63,983 bases of DNA, filler included, from Tortispora ganteri (GCA_003707115.1; 17 parts of 17 records of this genome joined end to end with filler, not necessarily neighbours in it), one strand, 5' to 3'. Counted from the first letter of the whole stretch, positions 4,325-60,912 are shown. Made by a program: numbers and translations. The notes: a model not told the origin generated them from the letters alone.

Positions 4325-4325
4325 A

Positions 4326-33492: not shown

Positions 33493-33511
33493 TTACAAGG
33501 ACCTCGAAGAT

Positions 33512-33572
<61 letters not shown>

Positions 33573-35868: not shown

Positions 35869-35869
35869 C
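35275..35869 (-). repeat. 72-bp coding repeat NSSMISASLINSTTSxSPNSTASL, about 8 copies
   Basis: Directly visible; 3 sequons per unit. Confidence 0.95.
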
Positions 35870-35969: not shown

Positions 35970-36300
35970 GAAAGGATGATTCAACACGGGACTTATTGGG
36001 TTTGAATTTCAACCCCTTTTCTTTATGTTCTTGTTTTATGCGATCTAGTTCTGCCTGTGTTTTTGCCTTCTGCAGCCGGTCTCGCTCTCTGCTCTGCACG
36101 GCAGTTTCTCTATCACGTGCAATTTTGGATGCAATTTTTTCCTTATAATGACGTATTATGTTATCATTTTCTGAAGAGTAGTTTCTGATGTTCAATGCAA
36201 ATTCGAGATTGGTAAAACGGTGAAAGATAGAAACCGTTGATACACTGTAAGGATGCAGAGTGTTCAGTTTCTGCATTAATCGACTGTTAACTCGTAGCAT
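35970..36300 (-). CDS. Putative mitochondrial protein N-terminus (possibly Atp11-like; 3' partial)
   Basis: Presequence-like MLRVNSRL...RNYSS followed by a charged helix; conserved in the second haplotype. The Atp11 resemblance is weak. Confidence 0.5.
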
Positions 36301-37136: not shown

Positions 37137-37559
37137 TTAGGCAGATCGCTCCTTGACCACAGGATTCCAAGCGGCATATTTGGGCTTGATGGTGTTGTAT
37201 GGCACATAAGCGGCAGGAGTTCCACTAGCAAATTGTTTCGTCTTTGGCACTGGATATTTGCGACGGGCAATGTTTTCAGGGGCTAGCTCTGTAGGAGCTT
37301 CCTTGAGTCCGTGAGCGAGCCACGCATGCCATGACTCTTCCAGTGTTGCAGGATCAGGATAGTACTCTTTGTATATGACCCATCGTGTACGTAAATGGAT
37401 CTCGTCTTCTTCAGCATTTTCGTAATATTTGTTTCCATATGAGTCAGTGCCGACCAATCGGCCGTACTTGATATCGCCAAGCTGGACGACTTCCTTGAAA
37501 GCTCTTACGGGGCCGATGCGAAACAGGTTTTTAACCTGTCGGATTAGCGAGGAGGACAT
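37137..37559 (-). CDS. NDUFA12: NADH:ubiquinone oxidoreductase subunit NDUFA12/N7BM
   Basis: GRLVGTDSYGNKYYEN, RTRWVIY, WHAWL, AYVPYNT...W. Confidence 0.93.
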   Translation of the reverse strand: MSSSLIRQVKNLFRIGPVRAFKEVVQLGDIKYGRLVGTDSYGNKYYENAEEDEIHLRTRWVIYKEYYPDPATLEESWHAWLAHGLKEAPTELAPENIARRKYPVPKTKQFASGTPAAYVPYNTIKPKYAAWNPVVKERSA

Positions 37560-38390
37560 TCTTTACAAACAAGAGTACTCAACTAGAACAACGTTTAGCA
37601 ATTATTCTCAGGTTTTCAGAAAACTCACTGATTGATCCTCTATTAGCAGAAGCTATGCGTTTGAAGCAGATCAGTTGGCTATTCTGGCAGGGTCGATGTC
37701 AGTTATTAAGCAAGCAGTAATGAATAGCTCTTGTTTTATTCGTAGAAGTTTTGATTGGACCAAAGGTGCTATAGCAACGAAGACATATAGTTACCACATA
37801 TGATATATTAAATTAAATTATTTATTAAAGTTGGGCACTTACTTGCCCCAAGTTATATAGTTGGCCGCAATATCTAAAATTCTAATCAAGGCTCATTATA
37901 GTTGACAATTGAACGGAAAATTTGTTAACTAGCAGGATCATAAGCATGATTGCAAGCAGGATCTTAAGTAGATTATACGGTATTGTGTGTTAGACCGATG
38001 GCTCAATACAGAAGCAGATTGGCAAGATATTACAGTTGGGCTCGACTGTTTGCTAGAGTGTGAAAATCAGCCTATATTCTTATCACCAACAAACGCTAAA
38101 ATCCTCAAAATCTTCGAAAGCTTCGTTAGAAAGTCTATTAAAGATTTCATATTTATTCTTCCGAATAGCAGCGAATGGGAAGTCAAAATGAAATCATTTA
38201 GACTGGGTTCCGATGTAAAGATAGTTTCATCTTTTGAGGTTGCTGTTACTTTAACTAGATGACACAGTCTTCTTATTGGCTCACTGCAGAGTCCTACACA
38301 AGAGATATAAGTCTACTCTGCAAGATGAGAAGATAATGGCGTCTATAAATTGTACGTTTATCAGCGCAATGGTGTGTTAGCCTAACAGTT

Positions 38391-39599
38391 ATGAAAACAG
38401 CTACATCTACAGTCACTGAAGTTGCGACAGTATTGTGTGTTCCTCCACTGGAAACCACTGTAGTGGACTATCGAGAATTCACATCCGGACAAGGAGTTGC
38501 AACAGTATACGGTGATAACTGCATTCCTGCCGTGAAGACCGTAGACGGATGGTACTGCCACAAATGTACCCCTGCGACAATCTCGTATGTACCTGCACCG
38601 CCACTTGTCAGCGATGCGCACACATACATTTGGTCGTACTACGAACAGGTATCTCTCTCTGTACATGTTGACGTCGATATCAGCTTCGAAATACCTGTCA
38701 TTGTCACTGAGACCGTCACCGAGCCTATCTCCGAAATATCCATCGCTTCCAGTGTACCAAATACGGCCAAGCCGCTTGGAGAAGGGTGTATTGCTATGCC
38801 TCCATATACGCCTTCTGTGGTATATGGAGCTCTTTACACTGAACAAGCCGACTGGTCTGCCGCAGACGTAGCTACTGGAGTGTATCGGAGTGGCAATCTC
38901 ACTACTTTTCCGTTAGGGGTTGATGAGTATAAACTTCATTTTGAATCTACAGATGTTGGACTGACAGAAATCATGATGTATGTCTTGATGGAGGAAGTAA
39001 GCGGATTCAGAGTCTCGTCTGCTGCGGACTCTGGTAATGTCCTGGCGTATGCCTTCATAGGAGAAGGCGCCATGGAATGTGGCAATATCCTCTCTATTGG
39101 CACTGGTGGCTACTCTGATCAGCAATCTTTATCTTATGACAGCGGTTACGTCGTATCTTTTGACTTCTCAGATTCAAAAGATCTCTATTATCCAGTGCGC
39201 TTTGTGTTCGTACAGGAATCGATGAACCGCAAACGTGCATTAGTTGGAGTCATTGCTGAAATCGAGCCAGTTAAACCAAATACTTGTTTGGATTGTGCGG
39301 ATGCAGTAGTCCCTTTGGTTGCCCTCGGAGCCCTAGCTGTGGCACCAGGTGGAAATTCTGTCACAAATACTGCTAGTGGTGAATCAAGATCTAGTTATAG
39401 TAGTTCTTATCCACCTATATCCTCAGATATAGAGTCGACTGCTTCTGACTCGTCTTTGGTTTCATTTGAAAGCTCGTCTTCTATTTCTTTCGGCATATCT
39501 TCTTTGTCATTGTTTTCGAACTCCTCATTGTCGCCATCGCCATCGCCATCGCCATCGCCTTCGCCTTCGCCATCGCCTTCGCCATCGCCTTCGCCATCG
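38391..39599 (+). CDS. Divergent family member (MKTAT type): N-domain, GLEYA/PA14-like domain, Ser/(SP)n (3' partial)
   Basis: GWYCHKCTP...PPLVSDAHTYIWSYYE; ATGVYR...EIMMYV...FIGEGAMECG...YYPVRFV. Confidence 0.87.
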
Positions 39600-41468: not shown

Positions 41469-43319
41469 CTAGAAAATTGATGTATCGAAGCCAATATAAT
41501 ACACATTCGGAATACCACTGTACGCCACGATTCGCAACGGCGTCCACACCCCGTACAAGTCCTCATGCAAATACCATATATATTGGCCAATGAACTGAAA
41601 TGCCCTTCCCCCACTTCCAATCGCCTCTATATTCCCGCACTTAATCCCACCTTCCCCGATATACACGTATCCTATGAAATCGCTTTCATCTGTATCATAA
41701 TTGACCATGATATTGAAAATGTAATTCGGTCCGTGAACATATACCAGCACCTCCGTCACTGCATTGCGATCATTGACGATTATTAGATCCTCAGAAATAT
41801 CCACGTCAACCTTGCTGGAATTCCCCATCCGGTACTTCCCTTCTGCTACTTGCATTTCAGTGTACTCCCAAAGGTCCACCGCCCATCCCCTCGCCAGCAG
41901 CTTCTGCGAAGGTTCGCACTGGCAAGCGTTAGACAACACTCCGCAGCTACTGCTACTGGACACGCTAGAACTCCACTTAGCTGAGCTGGATACGCTCCAA
42001 CCAACACTTGAACTCAAACTAGAACTCAAACTAGAACTAGAACTAGAACTAGAACTAGAACTAGAACTAGAACTAGAACTAGAACTAGAACTAGAACTAG
42101 AACTAGAACTAGAACTAGAACTCAGACTAGAACTAGAACTCAGACTAGAACTAGAACTCAGACTAGAACTGGAACTCAGACTAGAACTAGGACTGGAAGT
42201 AGAAATAGAACTAGAACTCAAACTAGAACTAGAACTAGAACTAGAACTAGAACTAGAACTAGAACTAGAACTAGAACTAGAACTAGAACTAGAACTAGAA
42301 CTAGAACTCAGACTAGAACTAGAACTCAGACTAGAACTAGAACTCAGACTAGAACTAGAACTCAGACTAGAACTGGAACTCAGACTAGAACTGGAACTCA
42401 GACTAGAACTAGGACTGGAAGTAGAAATAGAACTAGAACTCAGACTAGAACTAGAACTCAGACTAGAACTAGAACTCAGACTAGAACTAGAACTCAGACT
42501 AGAACTAGAACTCAGACTAGAACTAGAACTCAGACTAGAACTAGAACTCAGACTAGAACTATATGAGGAAATAGGATCAACTGGCTCCGGTGATCCACTT
42601 GCAGAACCATATACTGAAATAGCTATTGTCTCGCCGCTAATGGTAGTGAACATGACACTCACTGTCACAGAGACCCCGCCCTGCCGCTTGAATTGACCCG
42701 CCGATCCAAAGCCCGCAACAGGAATCACTATACGGATTGGGAACAAATACCCACCGGCAAAATCGACGGGAAAACTTGCCTTGAACCCATTCGAACTGTC
42801 TAGAGGGGCAGTGGCAGAAGAGCCAGAAGAACCAATAAGGTCCATGTTATCGCACCGCATAGCCAATTCGCCATCAAAGAGGTACGCGTAAGTATCTGCA
42901 AAGTTACTAGGATCCTGTCCCTGTACATCTACAAACGTAACGTCGGCTGATGGTTCAAGGTAGAAAAGGTACTCGACATAGCCCTGTTCGGATACCGATG
43001 CCGATATAGAGTTTGACGAGACTGTAGCGGCCACATTGTCTCGTTGGTAGTTCCTGTACTCACCGTTCTGGATATCGCTCGACGACAAGTCTACTGCGCC
43101 CTCGTATATAGCGGCAAATATTTTGCCTGCGCTGTAAGCAGCAGTAGTTGAGCATGCGTCTGCAGGCACAGTCGTGGGAGCTGTCGTTGGAACAGTTACT
43201 GTAGCTGTAGTGGGTGGCGTAGCGGGGTGAGTAGGCGGAGGCGTAGGTGCTATAGTCTCCGTGATAATGACTGGAATCTCAATAGAGACGTGCACGTCAA
43301 CCGACACGGACATGGACAC
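41469..43319 (-). CDS. Family member: end of N-domain, domain A, poly-Ser, variable domain (5' end on contig 8643-9024)
   Basis: Continuous ORF with both GLEYA/PA14-like domains. Confidence 0.9.
   Translation of the reverse strand: MSMSVSVDVHVSIEIPVIITETIAPTPPPTHPATPPTTATVTVPTTAPTTVPADACSTTAAYSAGKIFAAIYEGAVDLSSSDIQNGEYRNYQRDNVAATVSSNSISASVSEQGYVEYLFYLEPSADVTFVDVQGQDPSNFADTYAYLFDGELAMRCDNMDLIGSSGSSATAPLDSSNGFKASFPVDFAGGYLFPIRIVIPVAGFGSAGQFKRQGGVSVTVSVMFTTISGETIAISVYGSASGSPEPVDPISSYSSSLSSSSSLSSSSSLSSSSSLSSSSSLSSSSSLSSSSSLSSSSISTSSPSSSLSSSSSLSSSSSLSSSSSLSSSSSLSSSSSLSSSSSSSSSSSSSSSSSSSSSSSSSSSSSLSSSSISTSSPSSSLSSSSSLSSSSSLSSSSSLSSSSSSSSSSSSSSSSSSSSSSSSSSSSSSSLSSSLSSSVGWSVSSSAKWSSSVSSSSSCGVLSNACQCEPSQKLLARGWAVDLWEYTEMQVAEGKYRMGNSSKVDVDISEDLIIVNDRNAVTEVLVYVHGPNYIFNIMVNYDTDESDFIGYVYIGEGGIKCGNIEAIGSGGRAFQFIGQYIWYLHEDLYGVWTPLRIVAYSGIPNVYYIGFDTSIF
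42010..42560 (-). repeat. (AGTTCT)n / SSSSSL poly-Ser repeat
   Basis: Directly visible. Confidence 0.95.
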
Positions 43320-43420
43320 GNNNNNNNNNNNNNNNNNNNNNNNNNNNNNNNNNNNNNNNNNNNNTTAATTAATTAANNNNNNNNNNNNNNNNNNNNNNNN
43401 NNNNNNNNNNNNNNNNNNNN

Positions 43421-43751
43421 GAAAGGATGATTCAACACGGGACTTATTGGGTTTGAATTTCAACCCCTTTTCTTTATGTTCTTGTTTTATGCGATCTAGT
43501 TCTGCCTGTGTTTTTGCCTTCTGCAGCCGGTCTCGCTCTCTGCTCTGCACGGCAGTTTCTCTATCACGTGCAATTTTGGATGCAATTTTTTCCTTATAAT
43601 GACGTATTATGTTATCATTCTCTGAAGAGTAGTTTCTGATGTTCAATGCAAATTCGAGATTGGTAAAACGGTGAAAGATAGAAACCGTTGATACACTGTA
43701 AGGATGCAGAGTGTTCAGTTTCTGCATTAATCGACTGTCAACTCGTAGCAT
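43421..43751 (-). CDS. Second haplotype of 35970-36300
   Basis: Near-identical sequence. Confidence 0.5.
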
Positions 43752-44587
43752 TGTTAGTTGTTCCTGTTAAATTATTTGTATTAAAAAACAAAAGGCCTCA
43801 TGCAGTTGATATAGAAGAAAATTTTACAAGATAAGTCAGCGTTCAATACAGAAAGCTGGTGGTAGGTTGAAAATCTAAGAGAGTAGTCAATTTGTTTTTG
43901 ATCGTCAATATCACACGAGAACTCCCAAGGGGCTTGAATCAGGTCAATTGCCATTCTGAGGAATGTAGGCTAGGTGCATTCCTAAGATATTCAGTTTGCT
44001 GATTTACAGCAGTTTATTTCGGATTTCAAATCTTATAAACAAAAACAATAAAAAATATGCAAGGATCAATTGCAGGCCACTCGTGGCGAGAGATCGGGCT
44101 ACATGCCTGAACAAACGCTTGTCGATAGCCATGCAGCTCGAATGTAGTAATACGAACATTAACGGAATACTAATAGCAACGCTTGTGCAAGACATATTAA
44201 TGCGTATCGCTATATATTTGCTAAACTCGACGGTATAGTGGCAAGAATGGGATCTAGAAGAAGCACCGTTGTCGTTACTGTCGTCTCGTATTAGTCAGTC
44301 AAATAGCTAATTGAATTTAATAAAGTATCTATTACGAATAGCGATCATATAGGTATGCGATAAAATTCGGTACAGGACGTTATTGTGTCTGAATTTGTGC
44401 ATACCTGCACAACTGTGCGAAAAGAGGCAAGAAAGAAGTTTCGTGCGCTTAAAGATGAGGGTGTGTCTTGGCACTATAGCAGAAGTATCAGTCTAGGTAA
44501 GCGTCACTGAAACGGGAATTGAATGCAGGTAACGCTGAATAAGAGGCGCTTTTAATTTAATACACGCATTTTCTTCAGGCACACACG

Positions 44588-45010
44588 TTAGGCAGATCGC
44601 TCCTTGACCACAGGATTCCAAGCGGCATATTTGGGCTTGATGGTGTTGTATGGCACATAAGCGGCAGGAGTTCCACTAGCAAATTGTTTCGTCTTTGGCA
44701 CTGGATATTTGCGACGGGCGATGTTTTCAGGGGCTAGCTCTGTAGGAGCTTCTTTGAGTCCGTGAGCGAGCCACGCATGCCATGACTCTTCCAGTGTTGC
44801 AGGATCAGGATAGTACTCTTTGTATATGACCCATCGTGTACGTAAATGGATCTCGTCTTCTTCAGCATTTTCGTAATATTTGTTTCCATATGAGTCAGTG
44901 CCGACCAATCGGCCGTACTTGATATCGCCAAGCTGGACGACTTCCTTGAAAGCTCTTACGGGGCCGATGCGAAACAGGTTTTTAACCTGTCGGATTAGCG
45001 AGGAGGACAT
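44588..45010 (-). CDS. NDUFA12: NDUFA12/N7BM, second haplotype
   Basis: Protein identical to 37137-37559. Confidence 0.93.
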   Translation of the reverse strand: MSSSLIRQVKNLFRIGPVRAFKEVVQLGDIKYGRLVGTDSYGNKYYENAEEDEIHLRTRWVIYKEYYPDPATLEESWHAWLAHGLKEAPTELAPENIARRKYPVPKTKQFASGTPAAYVPYNTIKPKYAAWNPVVKERSA

Positions 45011-45841
45011 TCTTTACAAACAAGAGTACTCAACTAGAACAACGTTTAGCAATTATTCTCAGGTTTTCAGAAAACTCACTGATTGATCCTCTATTAGCAG
45101 AAGCTATGCGTTTGAAGCAGATCAGTTGGTTATTCTGGCAGGGTCGATGTCAGTTATTAAGCAAGCAGTAATGAATAGCTCTTGTTTTATTCGTAATAGT
45201 TTTGATTGGACCAAAGGTGCTATAGCAACGAAGACATATAGTTACCACATATGATACATTAAATTAAATTATTTATTAAAGTTGGGCACTTACTTGCCCC
45301 AAGGTATATAGTTGGCCGCAATATCTAAAATTCTAATCAAGGCTCATTATAGTTGACAATTGAACGGAAAATTTGTTAACTAGCAGGGTCATAAGCATGA
45401 TTGCAAGCAGGATCTTAAGTAGATTATACGGTATTGTGTGTTAGACCGATGGCTCAATACAGAAGCAGATTGGCAAGATATTACAGTTGGGCTCGACTGT
45501 TTGCGAGAGTGTGAAAATCAGCCTATATTCTTATCACCAACAAACGCTAAAATCCTCAAAATCTTCGAAAGCTTCGTTAGAAAGTCTATTAAAGATTTCA
45601 TATTTATTCTTCCGAATAGCAGCGAATGGGAAGTCAAAATGAAATCATTTAGACTGGGTTCCGATGTAAAGATAGTTTCATCTTTTGAGGTTGCTATTAC
45701 TTTAACTAGATGACACAGTCTTCTTATTGGCTCACTGCAGAGTCCTACACAAGAGATATAAGTCTACTCTGCAAGATGAGAAGATAATGGCGTCTATAAA
45801 TTGTACGTTTATCAGCGCAATGGTGTGTTAGCCTAACAGTT

Positions 45842-46992
45842 ATGAAAACAGCTACATCTACAGTCACTGAAGTTGCGACAGTATTGTGTGTTCCTCCACT
45901 GGAAACCACTGTAGTGGACTATCGAGAATTCACATCCGGACAAGGAGTTGCAACAGTATACGGTGATAACTGCATTCCTGCCGTGAAGACCGTAGACGGA
46001 TGGTACTGCCACAAATGTACCCCTGCGACAATCTCGTATGTACCTGCACCGCCACTTGTCAGCGATGCGCACACATACATTTGGTCGTACTACGAACAGG
46101 TATCTCTCTCTGTACATGTTGACGTCGATATCAGCTTCGAAATACCTGTCATTGTCACTGAGACCGTCACCGAGCCTATCTCCGAAACATCCATCGCTTC
46201 CAGTGTACCAAATACGGCCAAGCCGCTTGGAGAAGGGTGTATTGCTATGCCTCCATATACGCCTTCTGTGGTATATGGAGCTCTTTACACTGAACAAGCT
46301 GACTGGTCTGCCGCAGACGTAGCTACTGGAGTGTATCGGAGTGGCAATCTCACTACTTTTCCGTTAGGGGTTGATGAGTATAAACTTCATTTTGAATCTA
46401 CAGATGTTGGACTGACAGAAATCATGATGTATGTCTTGATGGAGGAAGTAAGCGGATTCAGAGTCTCGTCTGCTGCGGACTCTGGTAATGTCCTGGCGTA
46501 TGCCTTCATAGGAGAAGGCGCCATGGAATGTGGCAATATCCTCTCTATTGGCACTGGTGGCTACTCTGATCAGCAATATTTATCTTATGACAGCGGTTAC
46601 GTCGTATCTTTTGACTTCTCAGATTCAAAAGATCTCTATTATCCAGTGCGCTTTGTGTTCGTACAGGAATCGATGAACCGCAAACGTGCATTAGTTGGAG
46701 TCATTGCTGAAATCGAGCCAGTTAAACCAAATACTTGTTTGGATTGTGCGGATGCAGTAGTCCCTTTGGTTGCCCTCGGAGCCCTAGCTGTGGCACCAGG
46801 TGGAAATTCTGTCACAAATACTGCTAGTGGTGAATCAAGATCTAGTTATACTAGTTCTTATCCACCTATATCCTCAGATATAGAGTCGACTGCTTCTGAC
46901 TCGTCTTTGGTTTCATTTGAAAGCTCGTCTTCTATTTCTTTCGGCATATCTTCTTTGTCATTGTTTTCGAACTCCTCATTGTCGCCATCGCC
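45842..46992 (+). CDS. MKTAT-type family member, second haplotype (3' partial)
   Basis: Three aa differences from the 38391 copy. Confidence 0.87.
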
Positions 46993-47092: not shown

Positions 47093-47677
47093 GCTATTGG
47101 TGCAGTATCCAAAGACGCGATTCTGCCGCGATTGGACGCTATGAAAGCCGGTGACGTTCTACTAGGTCTTGGATCGGATGGCGTACATTCTAATGGATTC
47201 TCATTAGTGCGAAAAATTGTGGAAAGATCAGGACTCTCTTACACATCGGCGGCTCCGTTTGACCCTACAAAGCTGCTGGGAGACGTGCTGTTAGCACCTA
47301 CTCGCATATATGTCAAACCAGTACTCAAAGCTGTCCAGACAGGAAAGGTTTTGGGACTTTCACATATTACAGGAGGCGGGCTTTTGGAAAACATTCCGAG
47401 AGCCTTGCCTAGCCATCTGGCCGCAGAATTAGATGCCACAAGCTGGCCACGTCTCCCTGTGTTCGACTGGTTACAAAAGACTGGTAACGTGCCTGTGGAT
47501 GATATGTGTCTTACGTTTAATAATGGCATCGGCATGGTATGCATTGTACCTGCAGAAGCAGCTGATGAGCTAAAATCAACTTTCCAATTAGAAGGCGAGA
47601 AAGTGTATACGATTGGAACACTGGTCAACAAGTGCAAGGAATCTGTGATTATCAAAAACAAGTCTATTTGGGCTTAA
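47093..47677 (+). CDS. ADE5,7: AIR synthetase (PurM) C-terminal part of bifunctional Ade5,7 (5' partial)
   Basis: GLGSDGVHSNGFSLVRKI, LLAPTRIYVK, SHITGGGLLENIPR, TFNNGIGMV. Confidence 0.93.
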   Translation, partial: AIGAVSKDAILPRLDAMKAGDVLLGLGSDGVHSNGFSLVRKIVERSGLSYTSAAPFDPTKLLGDVLLAPTRIYVKPVLKAVQTGKVLGLSHITGGGLLENIPRALPSHLAAELDATSWPRLPVFDWLQKTGNVPVDDMCLTFNNGIGMVCIVPAEAADELKSTFQLEGEKVYTIGTLVNKCKESVIIKNKSIWA

Positions 47678-47779: not shown

Positions 47780-49855
47780 CTAGAAGTTTTTGGGTACAGG
47801 TTTAATATCAGAAGACCCCTGAACACTAATAGTGGTATCAAATTCCAGCAGAGTTTCAAACCGACCCAGGACAGCCAGACTATCACTAGCGTGCTCTACT
47901 GATACATAACGCAAAGGATACCATAAATTAGCTTCCACATTAATCTCAAGTTCTGCACTTCCGGAACCAACAGATAATAGAGAAATCTGGACACTAATTT
48001 TTGCCGTGGTATTTGTACCACCTTCTCCTATTGCTCTCATATCTTTGCACGACATAGCTGAACCACCTAGGTATAAGTAACTATCGTGGTAATATGTCTG
48101 CGTAAACGTGATAAGAACACTTGCTGCGCTATTCACCGTTATGATATTGCTTACGTCATTAGTTCTTATATAGAACAAAGTCTCAGATATCAGCGCTGAC
48201 ATTGCAATAAGATCATTAGAATAATATGACAGCGAAGTGGAATCAATGTCAATATTCGACCGAGTGCCATTTAATTTCCTGTATTCTCCATTAGCAAAAT
48301 ATGCATCGTCCCAGTCCCTATATGGTGTGGAATAAGTCGCAAAGAAAGCCGCGCCTTGAGTGTAGTTTAGTGAGCTGCACGTGGTCTCAGGAAGTAGAGA
48401 AGAAGACGGAATGTAGACACTCGAGCTCGAAGCTACCGAAGATGAACTGATATCACTCGTACTAACAGTAGTCGATAAAGGAGGGGCAATCGAACTAGTA
48501 CTTGATTGGACAGAAGAGCTAGGATCAAAAGATGAACTAGATTCAATAGATGAACTAGGTTCAATAGATGAACTAGGATCAAAAGATGAACTAGGTTCAA
48601 TAGATGAACTAGGTTCAATAGACGAACTAGCTTCAATAGACGAACTAGGTTCAATAGACGAACTAGGATCAATAGACGAACTAGGTTCAATAGATGAACT
48701 AGATTCAATAGATGAACTAGATTCAATAGACGAACTAGATTCAATAGACGAACTAGGTTCAATAGACGAACTAGATTCAATAGATGAACTAGATTCAATA
48801 GATGAACCAGGATCAATAGACGAACTAGGTTCAATAGACGAACTAGATTCAATAGATGAACCAGGATCAAAAGATGAACTAGATTCAATAGATGAACTAG
48901 GTTCAATAGACGAATTAGGTTCAATAGACGAACTAGGTTCAATAGACGAACTAGGATCAATAGACGAACTAGGTTCAATAGACGAACTAGATTCAATAGA
49001 TGAACTAGATTCAACAGATGAACTAGATTCAATAGATGAACTAGATTCAATAGATGAACCAGGATCAAAAGATGAACTAGGATCAATAGATGAACTAGGA
49101 TCAAAAGACGAACTAGATTCAATAGACGAACTAGGTTCAATAGACGAATTAGGTTCAATAGACGAACTAGGTTCAATAGACGAACTAGGTTCAATAGACG
49201 AACTAGGTTCAATAGACGAACTAGGTTCCAATATCGATATAGTGCTAGAGCTAGTAGAAATACTAGAAGTGATGAGAGAACTGTTCAAGTAATGATTAAT
49301 AGATGAAAATAACGCCGAAACTGAACTATCTTCAGTAGATATCTGAGTGGATGATATTGTCGATAGTGAATTCGAACTCTCTGAAGATAAACCCTGAAAT
49401 AGAGAAGAAGAAGCAAAGAAAGAAGACTGGAATATAGGAGCAATGCTGCCCGTCGCTAAAGATGTAGGTTTATTAGACAAAAGCAAAGTAGATCGATATA
49501 TTGGAGCAACATTAGCAGTAGTGGAAGGAGCAGGAACGGTAGTAGGAATAGTAACGACGATCGGTAATTGGACACTAACAGTTGCGTCTATAGAAATAGA
49601 AACATCAATTTGCTCGTAGTAGCCCCAAACATACGTGTGTTCATTGCTGACAAGTGGAGGTTTTAGTACATAAGTGACAACCGTAGGATGACACTCATAA
49701 CAGTACCAGCCATCAACGTAACTGATAGTGCTTGTACAATCATCACCGTAGACGGTAGCTAATCCCTTAGTCGAGGAGAAAGAGCGAGCATATACTGTGG
49801 TAGTATCTACCGGGGGCTCACACAGATAAGTCTCAATTGCCGTGATTGTTTTCAT
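47780..49855 (-). CDS. Complete 691-aa family member: N-domain, SSI(E/D)(P/S)S stalk, C-terminal GLEYA/PA14-like domain
   Basis: CEPP...GWYCYEC...PPLVSNEHTYVW; ANGEYR...ETLFYI...YLGGSAMSC...IGEGG...WYPLRYV. No signal peptide or GPI tail. Confidence 0.9.
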   Translation of the reverse strand: MKTITAIETYLCEPPVDTTTVYARSFSSTKGLATVYGDDCTSTISYVDGWYCYECHPTVVTYVLKPPLVSNEHTYVWGYYEQIDVSISIDATVSVQLPIVVTIPTTVPAPSTTANVAPIYRSTLLLSNKPTSLATGSIAPIFQSSFFASSSLFQGLSSESSNSLSTISSTQISTEDSSVSALFSSINHYLNSSLITSSISTSSSTISILEPSSSIEPSSSIEPSSSIEPSSSIEPNSSIEPSSSIESSSSFDPSSSIDPSSSFDPGSSIESSSSIESSSSVESSSSIESSSSIEPSSSIDPSSSIEPSSSIEPNSSIEPSSSIESSSSFDPGSSIESSSSIEPSSSIDPGSSIESSSSIESSSSIEPSSSIESSSSIESSSSIESSSSIEPSSSIDPSSSIEPSSSIEASSSIEPSSSIEPSSSFDPSSSIEPSSSIESSSSFDPSSSVQSSTSSIAPPLSTTVSTSDISSSSVASSSSVYIPSSSLLPETTCSSLNYTQGAAFFATYSTPYRDWDDAYFANGEYRKLNGTRSNIDIDSTSLSYYSNDLIAMSALISETLFYIRTNDVSNIITVNSAASVLITFTQTYYHDSYLYLGGSAMSCKDMRAIGEGGTNTTAKISVQISLLSVGSGSAELEINVEANLWYPLRYVSVEHASDSLAVLGRFETLLEFDTTISVQGSSDIKPVPKNF
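48515..49228 (-). repeat. 18-bp coding repeat (SSIEPS-type), about 40 units
   Basis: tcaatagacgaactaggt-type units. Confidence 0.95.
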
Positions 49856-50597
49856 CTTTGGAGAAGGAAAGAATTTCTAACAGGGCGAAAAGTCCCCGCA
49901 GATATAAACCATCAGTTTAGATCGACTAGATGGATTAAGGTTGTAAGAGTGTGTACTAAAAAATAAAATAACGTTATAGTACGGTCAGATAATGAAGCGA
50001 GTAGGAACGTCTTAGTGTTACTAGTATAGAGTTCGCCACTTTTGTGGGCGCCAACATTGATCGATGCATATAAGTATCACAATATACAATATGAAAAAAT
50101 TAGCATATTGATCTGTGTATTTAATGAACCCAAGATAAGATCCAAGTCGCTAGCAACAATTACAATTCGCTTTTTGGCCTAGTTTTGCAAGTTGCATAAT
50201 TTCATTACTGACATCGACAAAGGTTGATTGTACAAAGTCAAGTTGTAGCTAAATGAAAATTCATTTATTGTCCTGGCAACTAAAGGTAAAAGTTATGTGC
50301 TATGTAGCCTATCAAAACACATGCAAGGTTGACAGGATTGTGTAAGATGACCGATTATGTTCTAGATAGAAAACTTGCAGTCAAAGTGAAATGCTATTTC
50401 GCACTAGTATGCTAATGAAAATGTAGTATATGTGATATATGCAAAGAAAGAATATAACACGTACAATTCAATATTCGAAGGAGTCGATAATGATATGNNN
50501 NNNNNNNNNNNNNNNNNNNNNNNNNNNNNNNNNNNNNNNNNTTAATTAATTAANNNNNNNNNNNNNNNNNNNNNNNNNNNNNNNNNNNNNNNNNNNN

Positions 50598-50931
50598 AGA
50601 CTTTAAGCGATTTCAAGTTTCCGAGATTCGACGGTAATGTTTTGATGCGATTAAAACTGATATCAAGAATTTGAAGCTTTAACTCACAAAGAACTGGCGG
50701 AAAATTTGAGAATTTGTTACCTCTTAAGTCGAGACGTGAGAGCGGCAATGTAGACAGAAATTGGGGCAAGCGTTCAAGCAGGTTTCCTTGTAATTCAAGA
50801 CGCGTTATTTGCGGTATTTGTGCAAGTTCTACAGGCAGATCTTTTAAATCAAGACCCGAAAGACGCATTTCTGAAAGTTTATATCGTTTTTGCAATTCAG
50901 AAAGCGTTAAACGCTCATCATTTTGCGTCAT
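50598..50931 (-). CDS. Leucine-rich-repeat protein N-terminus (possibly Sog2-like; 3' partial)
   Basis: LxLxxNxL repeats: LELQGNLL, LDLRGNKF, LDISFNRI. Confidence 0.7.
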
Positions 50932-51020
50932 TGTTATCGGAAGTGATGATTTTCTTTAAACCGCCCCCACCCGTTTAGGTGTTACTACCTCTATTTCTCT
51001 ACCTACCACTACAATCCATA

Positions 51021-52823
51021 ATGTCGACTGTTATCGAGATTAATTCAGATGACGATTATTCGACGTCTACAAGTATTGATATTATTGAAATTAATGATTC
51101 TTCCGTTGAGAAGGCAGAACCGTTGACTAGTAAACAACCAAAACTACCGATCATTGATAGCTCGCATTTCTATGGGCCCTATAAACGTCGCTTCAGTTTC
51201 AGTGCCAGCGAAAATATTAGTATAGACGATTTGGAGAACTCTTCTTTTAAATTGCGTCGTTCAATTACAGATCGCAACTCTATAGTGCCAAACACGCCTT
51301 CTTCTTCGCGATCAAACCAATCAACACCATTACAAAGAACCACAAGTTCTCCGCTACCCTCTACAACTCAAAAATCACGTCCATTTCTTGAAGATTCACT
51401 ATCCAGTCTATTCTCTTCACCTTCGTCTGTAGAAAATGATAGGTTCACACACAACGCGATACGCTCTTTCCCTGATTTGACTACCGCGCCGCCTATCATG
51501 GACTATAGGTCTCTGTCAGTACGCACACCACCATCCAAAAAAATTGATTCAATGGTTGATCAGCTTCTCAGGGAAGCACATAAATCTGCTAAAAAGAAAG
51601 CAAAAGTAGCCAAATTGGCTTCTAAATCAACTGAACCCTCTGTTCGTCCAACACGTTCTTCTGTTGATCTCAACAAAATCAGTTCAACGCCTACTCGTAA
51701 TGGCAAGAAATCTATTGTATCAGCAAACTCTTCTCTTAATGCATGTCAAATGCCTCAAATTCAAAACATATCGATGGCTCAGCCTGCAGAACCCAATACC
51801 GCTCCTATCGCTCCGCGGATCATCAAAAAGTCAAAAACCAAAGACTCTTCTTCTACTGATCGAGAATATACTGCACGTATGTCTGAACTCAATAAAGCTA
51901 ACCCTACAAAGAAAGATTTTGCCAAAGAGATGATTGTAGAGTTTGAAGCATCGTTTCAAAACTCAGAATTGTTTCGCAACTTGTCAGATATTCTCACACC
52001 GCTCGGCGCCGAAGTCAGAATCGGCTCCTGGACACAACCCACTTCCTGTATAAAATGGTTCAGAGCTTTTGAAGGGGAATATAACCCTGATAAGGACCTT
52101 TATGTTCCGGGTCCAAAGAAAATCATCCAAGAGCCGCTCATCTTGCGCATAATTTCTGGCGAAGACTTCATCGATCTAGTGAAATCCAACCAGATCGCTG
52201 CTTACCTTCGCAAGTTTTCAGAAGAATTTAAAGGCTATACAATTACAATTCTGACAGTCGCGTTGAATAAAGCATGCAGAGCTGAACGCGCAGCTGTAGA
52301 GCGTGCTATCAGGAACCAGGTTAACAGAACAATTAATGGCAACACCTCTACAGACACTCTTAGCACTCAAGTGCACTTCGATGAACGGTCAATCACAGAT
52401 AGCATAATTGAAAGTATTATCAGTTACGATACACATTTCATACAAGTCAATAATCAGGACGAAGCTGCCGAAACTCTCTCGAGTTTCACGCAAGACATAG
52501 GGTACTTGCGTTACGTCAGAAATTTAACAGATCTAAAAGCAGATTTTGAAAGCTCTTCTTTGCAGATCCGATCTGCTCAAACAAGCGAAGAAAGTTTGTC
52601 GACTATGCTAAAAGAAATTCGCCGTATGACTCCTAATATTGCAGCTTCTTTATCAGAATCTTTCTCGCATTCTGTGATTTCTTTGCATTCTGAATGCATT
52701 AAAAAAGGTGCAGATTTATTGACAAACATGATGGGACCAAACGATAGAAGGATTGGCACTAGCCTGTCAGCGTCTGTCCACAAAGTTTTCACATGCACTG
52801 ACCCGAACGCTACAATATGCTAG
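51021..52823 (+). CDS. EME1: Probable Eme1/Mms4 subunit of the Mus81 endonuclease
   Basis: Disordered N-half; KEMIVEF...IKWFR ERCC4-like region; FTQDI and RRIGTSLSASVHKVFTCTDP C-terminus typical of fungal Eme1. Confidence 0.72.
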   Translation: MSTVIEINSDDDYSTSTSIDIIEINDSSVEKAEPLTSKQPKLPIIDSSHFYGPYKRRFSFSASENISIDDLENSSFKLRRSITDRNSIVPNTPSSSRSNQSTPLQRTTSSPLPSTTQKSRPFLEDSLSSLFSSPSSVENDRFTHNAIRSFPDLTTAPPIMDYRSLSVRTPPSKKIDSMVDQLLREAHKSAKKKAKVAKLASKSTEPSVRPTRSSVDLNKISSTPTRNGKKSIVSANSSLNACQMPQIQNISMAQPAEPNTAPIAPRIIKKSKTKDSSSTDREYTARMSELNKANPTKKDFAKEMIVEFEASFQNSELFRNLSDILTPLGAEVRIGSWTQPTSCIKWFRAFEGEYNPDKDLYVPGPKKIIQEPLILRIISGEDFIDLVKSNQIAAYLRKFSEEFKGYTITILTVALNKACRAERAAVERAIRNQVNRTINGNTSTDTLSTQVHFDERSITDSIIESIISYDTHFIQVNNQDEAAETLSSFTQDIGYLRYVRNLTDLKADFESSSLQIRSAQTSEESLSTMLKEIRRMTPNIAASLSESFSHSVISLHSECIKKGADLLTNMMGPNDRRIGTSLSASVHKVFTCTDPNATIC

Positions 52824-52898
52824 AGGCTACATGATTGCAGGAAACTATATTGATATTGTGTCATATTGTTGATTATCTAGCTCATATAAGCATAGATA

Positions 52899-53975
52899 TT
52901 AATTGTAATCTAATCGCGGGATTGGTTTCAAAGAATCGTTCAGAGATAACCCGGGAAGCTCTTTCTCGAGGATTGCAGAGGAAGAGGAAGATGAAATCGT
53001 GTTAGGAGACGCTTCAATTGCAGTCTCTTCTGATATATCAGTCAGCCCTTGTCTAACTGCAAGTACTGAGTCAACAATAACGGCGTCGAGCCCGTATTTC
53101 ATCTGTAAACGCGCGTACTCGGGCGTGTTGTTCATTGTACCATAAGAAAAGCATACTAGTCCTGATTCCTTTACAACGCGGATCAGTCTCGGACACATGA
53201 TTAACGGCTGACACGCAGAAACGAGACCCAAAAGGTTCCAGCGGGATGCAAATCTGATTGCCTCTTGTAAGCTGGTTGCACGAATATCAGCCATATGTTC
53301 TGTGCCTGATTCGGTCAAGTACAATATAGGAATAGACGGTTGTTTCAGCGACAACATGACGCAGATATCCGGATGAAAACTCGAAAATATAATATCTCTA
53401 CCGTTCATATTGTCGTAAACAACTTGTAAGACCTTGTCTACCCAACTGTTCATATCAATTGCCATCTCGTCCATATCCTGTGCCTCGCTCTCATCGAGCA
53501 TGGGATACTTGCATTCGATGTTGAACCCCACACTTGGAGGCAAAATCTTGAAGACATTCTCTAGAGTAGTGAAAGGTGCCTGAATACTCACTCCGCGAGT
53601 GTTTCCTTTAAACCCTTTCTGCTTGAAATCGCGCGTAAACTTCATTCGTTCGTTTATGTCATCCTCTTCGGTATAAGACTCCAGCGAATAGGAGCGCGGC
53701 CGTCTACTACTGTCTCTTTCTGGCGATATGAGTGTGCGCCGGCTCGGCGACGCGTTTCTGCTGCGACTGCGGCTCCTGTTGGAGTGTTCCGACGCATTCA
53801 AGAACTGTTCCACTGTCAACGCATGCATGGGCACATCTATACCCGTTTCACCGACGAGAAAATCATGGTAGATGACTGGCACATAATCCTTGGTAAGTTG
53901 AACGTCAAATTCGACATAGCTGGCGCCCAGGTTAGCAGCCGCAATGAAAGATTCGACTGTATTCTCTCCGAGTTG
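52899..53975 (-). CDS. GDE1: Glycerophosphocholine phosphodiesterase, GDPD domain (5' partial)
   Basis: QLGENTVESFIAAANLGASYVEFDVQLTKD, FKGNTRG, GFNIECKYP, IIFSSFHPD, DAVIVDSV. Confidence 0.93.
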   Translation of the reverse strand, partial: QLGENTVESFIAAANLGASYVEFDVQLTKDYVPVIYHDFLVGETGIDVPMHALTVEQFLNASEHSNRSRSRSRNASPSRRTLISPERDSSRRPRSYSLESYTEEDDINERMKFTRDFKQKGFKGNTRGVSIQAPFTTLENVFKILPPSVGFNIECKYPMLDESEAQDMDEMAIDMNSWVDKVLQVVYDNMNGRDIIFSSFHPDICVMLSLKQPSIPILYLTESGTEHMADIRATSLQEAIRFASRWNLLGLVSACQPLIMCPRLIRVVKESGLVCFSYGTMNNTPEYARLQMKYGLDAVIVDSVLAVRQGLTDISEETAIEASPNTISSSSSSAILEKELPGLSLNDSLKPIPRLDYN

Positions 53976-55865
53976 CANNNNNNNNNNNNNNNNNNNNNNN
54001 NNNNNNNNNNNNNNNNNNNNNTTAATTAATTAANNNNNNNNNNNNNNNNNNNNNNNNNNNNNNNNNNNNNNNNNNNNGCGAGTACGGCGTTCTTCAATAT
54101 CATATTTGGCTCAGCTCTGCGCTGGTACTCATTTTAGATTGTTTTTGTTATTGAACAGTACCATCGGCTGGCCGCGTGGAGTACGTTTTCGGCTTTACTG
54201 TACTCAGCGTAAAGGGTTCATTTTCAGGATATGATATCCATCCGGGCGTTTAGATTTACACTTATAGACATATTTAAAGATGCATGTTTGACTGAATGTG
54301 AATAAACAGGCATGCATTTGTCCATGTGAATTGCCAAAACGATCGATACTAAAATACGGTGTCTGGAAAGCCGACTGAACAAACAGTAGCTGAACTTAAA
54401 ATTTAATTAAATGAGCAAGAGGAGACTAGTGCGATAACCGCAGCTGTATTGCAAACTGCAAACTGCAAACTGCAAATTGCACCATGGCAACAATGCTCGC
54501 GGACCAGTAAATCATTGAAGCAGAGCCTAGAAGGTTGTATACTTTGTTGCTGAAACGACTGAACGGAATACAGGGTGCATCATAAATTAGGCAGTTAGTG
54601 GCACATGACAAATACCATCACAGTTGGTTTAACGGTAGATAAGGTTTTCTATTTTTGCCTTTCGGTAGATTCTACTATGAGCCTTGTTATTGGCGTATCC
54701 GACAAAAAAAAGGTTGAGGATTTAGTTAACTGTCTATAATCTCGCAGTATGGCGACTGTATAGCACGCGGGAGTATGCAGGATGATATGCTTGGAATCGA
54801 AGATGGGTACAATGACGTATCGAAAGCAGAGTATTGCAAAGCAGTGCAATTGCGTTACATGAAGAACAAGCAAGAACAAGCAAAGACAATAAGTGCAACA
54901 GAATTTCTCTAACAATATTTTCTCTTAATGAAGTTTTGAGCTAAGTTTACCAATTGGCCAAGAAATGAGTGCAGTGCTAAAATATCTTAAATCTCAGAAC
55001 ATCCAGGTATCAGTGAAGTTAGTTTACCGCAATTAGATTGCGAGCTATATCGTTGGTGTTGGTTTCCAAGACCGAAGAGACTGAAGAGATCAACAATGCA
55101 GAGCGTCTATGAAATAAGAGTGATCATATATGATCAGGAGAAAGAGTCTCCCTCAACGATTAATCTCATCAATGAACAATTATGTGATTGTGCGATTTGG
55201 AGTTACTTAGAGACTAACAGCAAAATAGGACGTGGCTTTAGAGATATTAACACTTACTTTAATAAAAATAAGCGCTCCGATAGGACCGAAGAGAGCAGTA
55301 TTTGTAAAATTACTTAATTACTGCAGCCTCAAGCATGTCCTTTTTCAGATTAAATGAATGATTTAAACCTTGAACGTGCATAAAACCTACATACTTATTG
55401 AGCAGAGCTTAGTTTGATTTTTATTTAAATTATGGAAAAAACTCATCCTTACTTGCCAACGGCCAGTGCACATCATTGACTGATCAATGATCAATGCCTT
55501 CCACGACATAACAATCTACAATGGATTTGCTTTTTCAGAATAGAACCAGTATCGACAACGCTGCAAGTTGCTGGATGGTACATGCACATTGTTTCCAGTT
55601 ACATTCTGCGGCATATCGAGCGAACGAGTTTGAGGCTGAAGTGTTTTAGCCTCAATGCTAATAACTCTAAATACGCAGCAACCAATCAAGGTCAACTTTG
55701 AATTTAGGCATTGTGACAGGATTCGGCGAGTAGAAGCATGTCAATAAGGCTAGGCCGAATAAGACAACGATAAGTTTTCATTGAAGACGGCAATAAGCTT
55801 TATATGGTTTCCGCTAAGATTTAAAAGAGGCACTGTGCGCCGCTTCTTGCCTTCAATCGCTCTCT

Positions 55866-57450
55866 ATGGTACAGACAATATACAGTACTATTGTAGAAAC
55901 GAACACGCTCATTTGCAGCCCACCTGTTGAAACTTCTACTGTCTACGGGCGCCTGTATACTTCTGAGTCTGGTACTACACGTGCGACTGTCTACGACAAC
56001 CAATGCGCGCCTTATGTGTCTACAGTTTCAGGCTGGTACTGCAACCAATGCACACCCGCTACGGTGACCTATGTACCTAGTCCGCCGCTCGTCAAAGACG
56101 ACTGCACCTATGTCTGGTCATACTACGAGTCCGTGTCTATGTCCGTGTCGGTTGACGTGCACGTTTCTATTGAGATTCCAGTTATTATCACGGAGACTAT
56201 AGTACCTCGGCGTCCGCCTACGCACCCCGCTACGCCACCCACCACAGCTACAGTAACTGTTCCAACGACAGCCCACACGACAGTGCCTGCAGACGCATGC
56301 TCAACCAGACCTGCCTACAGGGCAGGCGAAGTATTTGCCGCTATATTCGAGGGTGCGGTAGACTTGTTGTCGAGCGATATCCAGAACGGTGAGTACAGGA
56401 ACTACCAACGAGACAATGTGACCGCGAGAGTTTCGTCAAACTCTATATTGGCATCAGTATCGGAACAGGGCTATTTTGAGTACTTGTTTTACGTTGAACC
56501 ATCAGGCGACGTTGGGTTTGTAGATATACAGGCAAAGGATGCTAGTAACTTTGCAGATACTTATGCGTACGTGTACGAGGGTGAATTGGCCATGCGGTGC
56601 GATAACATGGAGCTTATTGGTACCTCTGGGACTTCTGGGACTGCCACTCTGGACAGTTCTAATGGGTTCAAGGCAAGTTTTCCGGTGGACTTTGACGGTG
56701 GATATTTGTTCCCAATTCGTATAGTGATTCCTGTTGCGGGCTTTGGATCGGCGGGTCAATTCAAGCGTCAGTCTGGAGTCTTTGTGACCGTGAGTGTGAT
56801 GTTCACTAGCATCAGTGGCGAGACAATAGCTATTTCAGTATATGGTTCTGCAAGTGGATCACCTGAGCCAGTTGAGCCTAGTTCTAGTCTGAGTCCTAGT
56901 TCTAGTTCTAGTTCTAGTTCTAGTTTGAGTTCTAGTTTGAGTTCTAGGTCTAGGTCTAGTTTGATTTCCAGTTCTAGTCTGAGTTCGAGTTTGAGTTCCA
57001 GTTCTAGTCTGAGTTCTAGTTTGAGTTCCAGTTCTAGTTTGAGTTCTAGTTCTAGTTCTAGTTTGAGTTCCAGTTCTAGTTCTAGTTTGAGTTCTAGTTT
57101 GAGTTCTAGTTTGAGTTCTAGTTTGAGTTCTAGTTTGAGTTCTAGTTTGAGTTCTAGTTTGAGTTCTAGTTTGAGTTCTAGTTCTAGTTCTAGTTTGAGT
57201 TCTAGTTCTAGTTCTAGTTTGAGTTCTAGTTTGAGTTCTAGTTTGAGTTCCAGTTCAAGTTCAAGTCCCAGTTCGAGTGTCAGTTCGAGCGTATCCAGCT
57301 CAGCTCAGTGGAGTTCTAGCGCCTCGAGTAGCAGCAGCTGTGGAGTGGTGTCAAACGCTTGCAAGTGCGAACCTTCACAGAGGCTGCTGGCAAGAAGGTG
57401 GGCGGTGAATCTTACGGAGTATACTGAAACGGAGGTAGCCGATGGGAAGT
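55866..57450 (+). CDS. Family member: N-domain, domain A, poly-Ser, start of variable domain (3' partial)
   Basis: Continuous ORF from MVQT to EVADGK. Confidence 0.9.
56878..57290 (+). repeat. AGT/TCT/TTG poly-Ser (SSSL) repeat
   Basis: Directly visible. Confidence 0.93.
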
Positions 57451-59362: not shown

Positions 59363-60912
59363 ATGTTGAGCACAGTAACTTTAACGGATACGTCTCTTTG
59401 TAAACCACCAACAACTACTACAACTGTCTATGAAAAGACTTATAGTAGCGCAAATGGTATAGTCACTGCTTATGATGATTATTGTATACCCGAGACAATA
59501 GTCGTCGATGACGTCTACTGTTGTGCCTGTACACCAACAGTTTTGACATATGTTCCTCAGGGCCCGCTAGTAAGCGAATCTCATACTTATGTATGGGATA
59601 TGTACCAAGAAATTTCGTTTTCCACATCTATTGCCTTCAATTTCACTATAGAGAAACCTTGTGCCGTTACCAAGTATGAAAATTATAATCCCAAACAGAC
59701 AACGCTAAGTTCTGTCGCAGGTATGACATATAGTCTGGTATCTAGCCATCATGCCAGTAGTATTACCAGCGAGATAAGCACTATAGTGAGCTCACCACTG
59801 GCGCATACCTTTGAGGATTTTGACATTTCAGTTAGAGAAGATTCGACGGCAGTTGAACCGACAACAGTCCCGGAAAGTCCAACTTCATACTTTTCAGGCA
59901 ATGACATTAGTACTGGAGATCCTTCCATTATTGTCGAGTCTTCCGGGATAATTACAGTACAGTCTTCTGTAGAGGTATCTTCGTCTGCGCAATTGCCATC
60001 ATATTACGCAGAATCTTCGTCAGTTTTGACTAATACTAGTAGTTCTAGCACTGTGCAAAACGACATGAGCAGCTCACATCCGACTACATCAGTGGATCTT
60101 TCATCTGATATTGAAGTAATAACGGCGATTCCCCCTGTAACAGCCACAAATGGCTTCCCTGGAGTTGTAACAGTGGTTTCTCCTGGAACGGGCCATAGCA
60201 TTAGTATCTCATCCTCGTCTTCACTATCGTCATCGCCTGGAGTTGAAACAGTGGTTTCTCCTGGAACGGGCCATAGCATTAGTATCTCATCCTCGTCTTC
60301 ACTATCGTCATCGTCTTACTCAGTATCTTTGTCAGATTCAACTGCCGGAACAAGCACAGATAGTTTCCCTGGAGTCATAACCATGATTCCTCCTTCTCCT
60401 GTCCCTCCTATCCCTACAAGCACAGATAGTTTCCCTGGAGTTATAACAATGATTCCTCCTGACCCTGTCCCTCCTATCCCTACTAGCTCGGATGGTTTCC
60501 CTGTTGTTATAACCATGATTCCTCCTTCTCCTGTCCCTCCTATCCCTACTAGCTCGGACGGTTTCCCTGGAGTTATAACAATGATTCCTCCTGCCCCTCC
60601 TGCAACAACAAGCTCGGATGGTTTCCCTGTTGTTATAACCATGATTCCTCCTTCTCCTGTCCCTCCTGTTCCTACTAGCTCGGACGGTTTCCCTGGAGTT
60701 ATAACAATGATTCCTCCTTCTCCTGTCCCTCCTATCCCTACTAGCTCGGATGGTTTCCCTGTTGTTATAACCATGATTCCTCCTTCTCCTGTCCCTCCTA
60801 TCCCTACTAGCTCGGACGGTTTCCCTGGAGTTATAACAATGATTCCTCCTTCTCCTGTCCCTCCTATCCCTACTAGCTCGGATGGTTTCCCTGTTGTTAT
60901 AACCATGATTCC
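59363..60912 (+). CDS. Most divergent family member: N-domain, Ser/Thr region, Pro-rich 22-aa repeats (3' partial)
   Basis: CKPP...YDDYCIP...YCCACTP...PLVSESHTYVW. Confidence 0.83.
60350..60912 (+). repeat. 66-bp coding repeat SSDGFP(G/V)VITMIPPSPVPPIPT
   Basis: About 8-9 units, alternating G/V variants. Confidence 0.95.

Follow-up and report, generated by a model that had tools for sequence, protein, structure and literature searches.

The window analysed here is a 63,983-nt stretch of Tortispora ganteri DNA (GCA_003707115.1), made up of 17 small contigs of 3.0–4.3 kb each that are strung together by N/TTAATTAATTAA linkers, and its minus strand carries at 47780–49855 an intact adhesin-like gene without a leader, which belongs to subfamily SF7 of a large gene family (Table 1). 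No signal peptide, transmembrane (TM) segment or glycosylphosphatidylinositol (GPI) tail was detected in the encoded protein, which consists of a Cys-rich N-domain, a Ser/Thr-rich stalk and a C-terminal PA14/GLEYA-like domain. Specifically, the stalk contains 39 hexapeptides of the form [IFV][ED][PSA]xSS within 48512–49213, and the C-terminal domain has no Pfam match, yet it matches the PA14/GLEYA-like domain of the family; its fold is read through the homologous domain of the member starting at 38391, where it was modelled. The in-frame TAG lies just seven sense codons ahead of the ATG, so an N-terminal in-frame extension has no room. The usual layout of the family is N-domain, first PA14-like domain, stalk and second PA14-like domain, of which two PA14-like domains the focal gene has the terminal one alone; SF13 and SF18 are devoid of any. 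The orthologs of the focal gene, P0001 and P0002, show 85–86% identity in the N-domain. P0001 (986 aa) seems to be two tandem family genes fused in one model, with a second N-domain from about residue 570.

The source assembly measures 9.6 Mb in 1044 contigs, and the N-domain has 122 matches in it, fragments and duplicate contigs included. The subfamily analysis covers part of these matches: 93 open reading frames (ORFs) with a start region, three cut by contig ends, gave 58 distinct 5' ends in 22 clusters, which became 19 subfamilies after two clusters were merged into neighbours and the divergent locus L074/L080 was set aside; the T. ganteri genome holds at least 19 subfamilies. Because the window is a concatenation of small contigs, most members within it are truncated by contig ends, and raw copy counts are inflated because two of the contigs, 35970–39599 and 43421–46992, are 99.2% identical over 3572 nt, being alleles or an assembly duplicate.

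All 11 starts named in the preliminary description of this DNA translate as stated there, and a twelfth copy was found at 45842. Its observation that none of them has a hydrophobic h-region extends to the subfamilies: scored by a home-made measure rather than SignalP, the longest uncharged hydrophobic run within residues 1–32 is 0–7 in 19/19 subfamily representatives and 0–5 in 12/12 Tortispora caseinolytica proteins versus 10–14 in 4/4 signal-peptide-bearing comparators, and by the same measure 5/75 control genes appear leader-bearing. The absence of a hydrophobic C-terminal tail, likewise noted earlier, holds throughout, with GPI- or TM-like ends in none of 43 distinct complete C-termini. 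Each of the 19 subfamilies has a sole Met in the stretch from the upstream stop to the conserved Cys, 11–16 residues from this Cys in 17 subfamilies and 24 and 42 residues from it in the other two; an in-frame stop lies within 10 codons upstream of the Met in 13/19, and position −3 is a purine in 16/19 (47/75 in controls). A TATA-like box, described before as present upstream of most members, occurs at −75 to −35 in 12/19 subfamilies versus 13/74 control genes with a pattern picked after the data had been seen, and the stricter TATAWA occurs in the same interval in 8/19 versus 11/74. The upstream regions show no excess of the middle sporulation element (MSE; 8/19 versus 30/69) or of pheromone and other known promoter motifs, and none of ~525 k-mers was convincing once corrected for multiple testing.

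The median ratio of non-synonymous to synonymous divergence (dN/dS) of the N-domain is 0.11, and all 130 within-subfamily pairs, which are not independent, lie below 1; between subfamilies, synonymous sites are saturated in 657/809 pairs. Judged by this ratio, the N-domain is under purifying selection. Relics stand beside the intact copies (window 135–800, L049, L055 and L099). The only sequence-level relatives found are T. caseinolytica proteins, whose N-domains are 59–92% identical to their best T. ganteri match; among the 11 N-domain representatives retrieved from this species by profile search, 10 begin at the same Met, and the exception, P0010, resembles a merged gene model. A wider N-domain profile returned Tortispora proteins only, and metagenome contigs gave none. 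P0013 (E 1.6e-5), a repeat protein that does not resemble the family, was tried as a relative and dropped as chance.

Searching the genome with Pfam GLEYA yielded two strong genes, L050 and L051, both of which encode, in this order, an ordinary signal peptide, a homolog of the N-domain, a stalk and a canonical GLEYA domain with the Asp-Asp (DD) motif, with no GPI tail. The family N-domain matches that of these paralogs in hhalign at 95.9% (E 6e-9) and 64%, and the reverse search recovers the leaderless family. Protein identity between the two N-domains is ~30%, all four N-domain cysteines are also found in the paralogs, and the leaderless proteins start at the point where the paralogs read TVTETE after the leader. 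In a FastTree phylogeny of 32 N-domains (110 columns), L050/L051 form a group separate from every one of the 28 leaderless sequences, and T. caseinolytica proteins are the partners of eight subfamilies. Because L050 and L051 carry a signal peptide before the homologous N-domain, the leader was most likely lost once, long ago, ahead of both the subfamily radiation and the divergence from T. caseinolytica; this direction rests on an assumed root and on GLEYA adhesins generally having leaders, which are described for them in parts of PMC6308950, PMC8621652 and PMC6023273. Among 1144 candidates, no relatives of the leader-bearing N-domain were found. A PRY/CAP protein is not a safe outgroup because its link to the N-domain is weak (hhalign 0.4%; pairwise E 2e-5 via a paralog). 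L081:2948–4225 (-) and P0017 are secreted PRY/CAP proteins whose Cys/Thr-rich N-terminal region is weakly N-domain-like and has an SVDVEISV-type strand. Just 3' of the L051 gene, L072:1345–1900 (+) is a decayed copy of the leader-bearing N-domain.

Modelling shows a PA14 fold in the domain that follows the N-domain of the 38391 member. The model of both domains has a predicted local distance difference test (pLDDT) score of 71, and structure comparison ranked Flo5A best (Z 10.0, root-mean-square deviation (r.m.s.d.) 3.7 over 156 residues), with Epa6A and Cea1A at Z 9.1; Foldseek gave KpFlo2, Cea1 and Epa probabilities of 0.97–0.99, with E only ~0.003–0.01 and ranks under several unrelated beta-sandwich rows. 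Additionally, two members score above the Pfam GLEYA cut-off, window 33493–35869 and L040. The N-domain alone was modelled as long beta-hairpins (pLDDT 64), and its fold search gave no Foldseek match at E ≤ 0.001 and Atlas scores of 0.75–0.78, under chance level. An aerolysin fold check on this pLDDT-64 model gave a best VIA Z of 3.3 (r.m.s.d. 6.6), within noise, and rows of aerolysin-like beta-pore-forming lectins were put down to generic long strands. The focal N-domain matched no Pfam family, only two matches were seen among 17 members (E > 0.02), and the search against PDB sequences returned a single match (E 3.4). Hexapep and Pentapeptide Pfam matches fall on Ser repeats and were rejected.

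Residues C56, C59, C133 and C230 are invariant in 21/21 aligned rows, the PA14 cysteine pairs are invariant across the family, and in the alignment the paralog and Cea1/Flo1 have their AFxC cysteine at the position of the MxC cysteine. The aligned Flo/Epa cysteines presumably form disulfides. The DD calcium motif, present in both leader-bearing paralogs, was found in only 2/27 family domains, and sugar binding through the canonical site is therefore doubtful; an Asn at the carbohydrate-binding loop 2 (CBL2) position was seen by eye in 3/18 first PA14-like domains.

In the loop after the YPxRI strand, a [KR]R dipeptide occurs in 13/18 first PA14-like domains versus 2/90 other windows of the same domains and in 1/15 later PA14-like domains; three of the five exceptions have Lys-Arg (KR) elsewhere in or just past the domain and one has LVERQ. 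Many sites are a lone KR or RR followed by D, Q or A, and several are part of basic clusters (RKR or KKR, for example). The loop corresponds to the Flo1 loop with N224, V226 and W228 that is treated in part of PMC6308950, and the binding loop therefore appears to have been turned into a likely Kex2 site. The genome contains an intact Kex2 gene and three PMT genes. At the N-terminus, an acetylation-prone second residue occurs in 5/19 subfamilies versus 46/70 control genes (p = 0.003); such residues invite N-acetylation, which blocks post-translational ER (endoplasmic reticulum) entry in S. cerevisiae, and are avoided by yeast secretory proteins, according to the text available from PMC3104963. 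The stalks are poor in K/R (1.7%). The dense N-x-S sequons pointed out earlier are indeed seen, but they are not evidence, as Ser-rich composition suffices (S/T after Asn: 150/310 at +2, 145/310 at +1). In SF3, which forms tandem arrays, 17 terminal tip domains have a median identity of 49% versus 94% for 18 N-domains and 85% for 16 first domains, and non-synonymous divergence about equals synonymous divergence in four 15-column blocks of the tips. Over the whole tip domain the median dN/dS is 0.74 with 32/135 pairs above 1, which does not make the case for positive selection. This pattern of divergence fits an outward-facing recognition domain.

The reading we favour, at about even odds, is that the proteins get into the ER with no cleavable leader, probably post-translationally and with the mature N-domain as guide; of the options raised in the preliminary description, leaderless ER entry has the most support, though we infer it. 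The family would comprise genes, each with a promoter of its own, whose products are GPI-less surface adhesins in which the C-terminal domain does the binding, descended from a signal-peptide-bearing GLEYA adhesin whose leader was lost once. If expressed, the proteins would reach the ER lumen post-translationally, most likely by the Sec62/63 route, through an uncleaved weak signal within the mature N-domain, and an N-terminus that escapes acetylation would help. According to PMC2114485, more than 10% of carboxypeptidase Y whose leader has been deleted still becomes glycosylated. In the lumen the cysteines would pair and the stalk would be O-mannosylated, and in the Golgi Kex2 would nick the first PA14-like domain within the loop used by Flo/Epa proteins for calcium and sugar binding, so that this domain would act as a link open to cleavage and not as a lectin. 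The N-domain may keep the protein non-covalently in the wall, with the stalk displaying the last PA14-like domain, highly variable in SF3, for adhesion. We suggest tentatively, and as somewhat improbable in its entirety, that the N-domain may be a new non-hydrophobic, uncleaved ER-targeting module that replaced the ancestral signal peptide and allowed a leaderless, anchorless family of Kex2-nicked, tip-variable surface proteins to expand.

Several points weigh against ER entry guided by the N-domain. No h-region lies anywhere near the N-terminus in the family, and no internal hydrophobic segment is consistent across it: the candidate at about residues 82–105, a beta-strand of alternating pattern that includes acidic residues, is weak in SF1, SF2, SF13, SF14 and SF18, and is scarcely more hydrophobic than in the leader-bearing paralogs. 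The subfamilies compared in the second-residue test are related to each other, and the methionine-cleavage version of that test is not significant (7/19 versus 43/70, p = 0.07). Sequons in folded domains show no excess (91/545) and no sign of selection. The KR site, which the focal gene lacks, could be inherited or serve another purpose, the CxxC could be a cytosolic zinc site, and the root of the tree is assumed. Finally, the carboxypeptidase Y precedent is inefficient, and a whole family relying on such a route would be odd.

In an Isp3-like way, the proteins could instead bypass the ER, leaving the cytoplasm either directly or inside vesicles, and be oxidised and cut at KR extracellularly. 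This is unlikely given that position-specific KR in Kex2-like contexts and the second-residue bias indicate ER/Golgi passage, that long Ser stalks normally require O-mannosylation, and that MSE motifs are not in excess upstream; it would nevertheless account for the lack of a recognisable signal and of sequon selection, and invariant cysteines and variable tips need an extracellular location only. According to PMC4019487, Isp3, a protein of the S. pombe spore coat, lacks a signal sequence and is exported out of the spore cytoplasm. Alternatively, the proteins may have been repurposed within the cell after the leader loss, in the cytosol or nucleus with the CxxC as a zinc site and KR clusters as import signals, or be freed only on lysis. 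The missing leader, a four-cysteine N-domain with CxxC, the rarity of the DD motif and the KR sites in basic clusters agree with such a role, but the secreted paralogs carry the same four cysteines, the PA14 cysteine pairs are invariant, many KR/RR sites are solitary, the stalks are poor in K/R, and the tips diversify as surface ligand binders do, all of which leaves an intracellular role improbable. 

A leader added at the RNA level, through an exon far upstream, trans-splicing or initiation at a non-AUG codon, would account for all secretory marks together, and branch-point-like words occur in a few upstream regions. The unseen 5' exon considered in the preliminary description did not emerge, however: within the 0.6–1 kb upstream that the splice tests covered, a relaxed test that needed no branch point gave a hydrophobic run in 3/19 versus 13/58 controls, which is the chance rate, and with a branch point required few splices were possible and none gave a convincing leader. 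No leader arises by splicing in the 642 nt upstream of the focal gene, nor in the 1 kb upstream of two relatives. The genome is poor in introns, with 6 short canonical intron-like matches in 200 kb (81 long ORFs therein) and one clear 57-nt intron, GTAAGT..CTAAC..TAG, among 5 candidates elsewhere. With the in-frame stop so near the Met, a non-AUG extension big enough for a leader is excluded in 13/19 subfamilies; the sole Met, 11–16 residues ahead of the Cys in 17/19, the −3 purine and the same Met in T. caseinolytica models also argue against a leader from RNA, which we hold to be quite improbable. Hydrophobic-looking translations upstream of some SF3 starts vary in frame between copies, have no Met and were assigned to the untranslated region. 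Directly before the SF15 ATG, window 38352–38390 (+) holds a 37-nt intron-like GTACGT...CTAACAG, which is shorter than the other intron-like matches (49–118 nt) and would supply no leader. A Pneumocystis-type cassette, in which silent leaderless copies recombine behind one leader-supplying expression site, had been suggested as well; the family is leaderless, multigene and in part arrayed in tandem, its SF3 5' halves are homogenised and its tips variable, and the assembly breaks exactly at family genes, so such a site could hide. Yet the longest word common to subfamilies at −60 to +15 is 11 nt (171 pairs) versus the identical 33-bp conserved recombination junction element (CRJE) that msg-I genes share, as part of PMC5676039 states; most subfamilies have their own TATA-like word, and many are single genes deep within large contigs amid housekeeping genes. 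No leader fused to the N-domain was found among the 58 distinct 5' ends, the divergent L074/L080 aside, nor at 19 further loci that form part of the 122 matches in the 1044-contig assembly, and the paralogs, given their low identity, are too distant for recombination. A cassette is thus highly unlikely. That the genes are decayed copies or assembly artefacts, as relics and duplicate contigs might suggest, is scarcely credible in view of the low dN/dS, the long intact ORFs and second-species orthologs of matching length, e.g. L042 and P0009, both 488 aa.

The likeness to GPI-less adhesins with a C-terminal domain, proposed in the preliminary description, holds. That description does not mention the leader-bearing paralogs, the PA14 fold, the KR site or the variable tip, and it weighs the sequons too heavily. 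The family shares with the fission-yeast-type GLEYA/DIPSY adhesins (Linder and Gustafsson family; PF10528), to which L050 and L051 belong, an S/T-rich stalk, a C-terminal PA14/GLEYA-type domain, a Cys-rich N-terminal part and the absence of GPI, whereas it lacks their signal peptide, has mostly lost the DD motif and often has a second, KR-bearing PA14-like domain before the stalk. Because signal peptide and calcium site are missing, we regard the family as a derived variant, not a member, of the GPI-less GLEYA adhesins. The lectin adhesins Flo5, Flo1, Epa and Cea1 have the PA14 beta-sandwich in common with it, but in those proteins there is a signal peptide, the lectin domain is N-terminal, GPI is usual and the calcium site DD-N is present; in the Tortispora family the orientation is reversed, leader and anchor are absent, and DD is rare. 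Pneumocystis msg-I is likewise a big family of variable surface proteins whose genes lack a signal peptide and encode a KR site; unlike msg-I, the Tortispora family has no CRJE-like junction and no GPI, carries TATA-like words of its own, occupies both dispersed and tandem loci and has an unrelated fold. For Komagataella phaffii, the available part of PMC7419694 lists Flo100/200/300 and Chr4-1013 as PA14/GLEYA proteins predicted to lack an N-terminal signal peptide; this set, likened here by description only, is a handful of predictions with GPI signals reported, and that part describes no conserved leaderless N-domain. S. pombe Isp3 and P. jirovecii Int1, in portions of PMC4019487 and PMC6023273, are leaderless fungal proteins reported at the surface; they too are likened by description, being single genes without the architecture of mucin stalk and PA14. 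The literature search, which left subscription journals outside, gave no description of a conserved leaderless family of such adhesins.

Table 1. The focal SF7 gene, its parts, and the other family members in the window
Feature	Coordinates	Strand	Remarks
Intact one-exon leaderless adhesin-like gene, subfamily SF7	47780–49855	-	2076 nt, 691 aa
Cys-rich N-domain, residues 1–105, begins at Met itself	49541–49855	-	C12, C40, C52, C55
Ser/Thr-rich stalk	48380–49540	-	S+T = 51%
C-terminal PA14/GLEYA-like domain, residues 493–691	47783–48379	-	C493, C603; no DD motif; no hydrophobic tail
TATA-like word TATATCTG	49899–49906	-	51 nt 5' of ATG
In-frame TAG	49877–49879	-	7 sense codons between TAG and ATG
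Truncated SF3 relic, 221 aa, stops inside first PA14-like domain	135–800	-	
3' half of SF3-type member, with stalk of NSS repeats and a variable tip domain	1988–4325	-	5' end off contig
SF3 member, 5' end	4426–5059	-	
SF3-type member, 3' half including tip domain	6901–8542	-	
SF3 member, 5' end	8643–9024	-	
SF3-type member, 3' half	10246–12656	-	near-duplicate of 1988–4325
SF3 member, 5' end	12757–13387	-	
Member with tandem PA14-like domains, 3' part	15096–16762	-	
SF6 member	20810–22200	-	30-aa non-hydrophobic N-terminal extension, many X-Ala/X-Pro dipeptides
SF3-type member, 3' part including tip domain	28450–29753	+	
SF3 member, 5' end	31485–32118	+	
Member, 3' part: sequon-rich repeats, two GLEYA-like domains, poly-Ser tail	33493–35869	-	Pfam GLEYA 36.7 bits, above cut-off
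SF15 member: N-domain and first PA14-like domain	38391–39599	+	KR at 39231–39236; source of second structure model
SF3 member, greater part: PA14-like domain with KR, poly-Ser stalk, tip domain	41469–43320	-	5' end cut
SF15, second copy	45842–46992	+	contig 99.2% identical to 35970–39599
SF3 member	55866–57450	+	KR at 56763–56768
SF13 member: N-domain, Pro-rich repeats	59363–60912	+	
SF3 member	61329–63983	+	KR at 62226–62231; extends past window end

Some members deserve separate mention. The X-Ala/X-Pro run in the SF6 extension, which has no h-region and is found also in L067 and L083, resembles the Ste13-trimmed pro-regions of secreted yeast proteins, and the extension is possibly a relic of a lost pre-pro leader. 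SF14 (L042:4178–5641 (-) and P0009) is the most divergent subfamily, yet its N-domain is the most conserved between species (92%); neither the first Cys nor the internal hydrophobic strand is present in it, and its tail is helical, acidic then basic. At L080:4878–5285 (-), a short ORF (135 aa from the second Met) encodes an N-domain homolog with a weakly leader-like start and stands outside the counts. No 5' end was found for the sequon-rich member seen at 33493–35869 (-), L052 and L101; a relative has Trp-rich WPNSTAS repeats. Elsewhere in the window, 16863–19089 (-) is a Ty1/copia-type retrotransposon gag-pol ORF cut by the contig end (Pfam gag pre-integrase and integrase matches), and housekeeping fragments lie at 19707–20709, 24218–24541, 26166–27581, 47093–47677 and 50598–54029, assigned to a WD40/CTLH protein, a helicase, Xaa-Pro aminopeptidase, AIR synthetase, an LRR protein, and Eme1-like and GDE1-like genes. 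The duplicated contig pair includes a gene that we take to be complex I NDUFA12-like.

The signal peptide is the feature by which fungal adhesins are recognised and defined, and this old, selected, two-species Tortispora family has none. With a shared N-domain, the leaderless family and its leader-bearing paralogs form a natural matched pair for the question of leaderless arrival in the ER or the wall. If the proteins are secreted, secretome pipelines overlook perhaps the largest surface family of T. ganteri, and the N-domain would amount to a new export tag; a PA14 sugar-binding loop turned protease site would be a further novelty, as would hypervariable tips in a yeast with cactus-dwelling relatives (PMC11449361). 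Several marks of secretory passage survive in a family that most likely lost its ordinary export tag, which may point to a so far unrecognised route to the cell surface.

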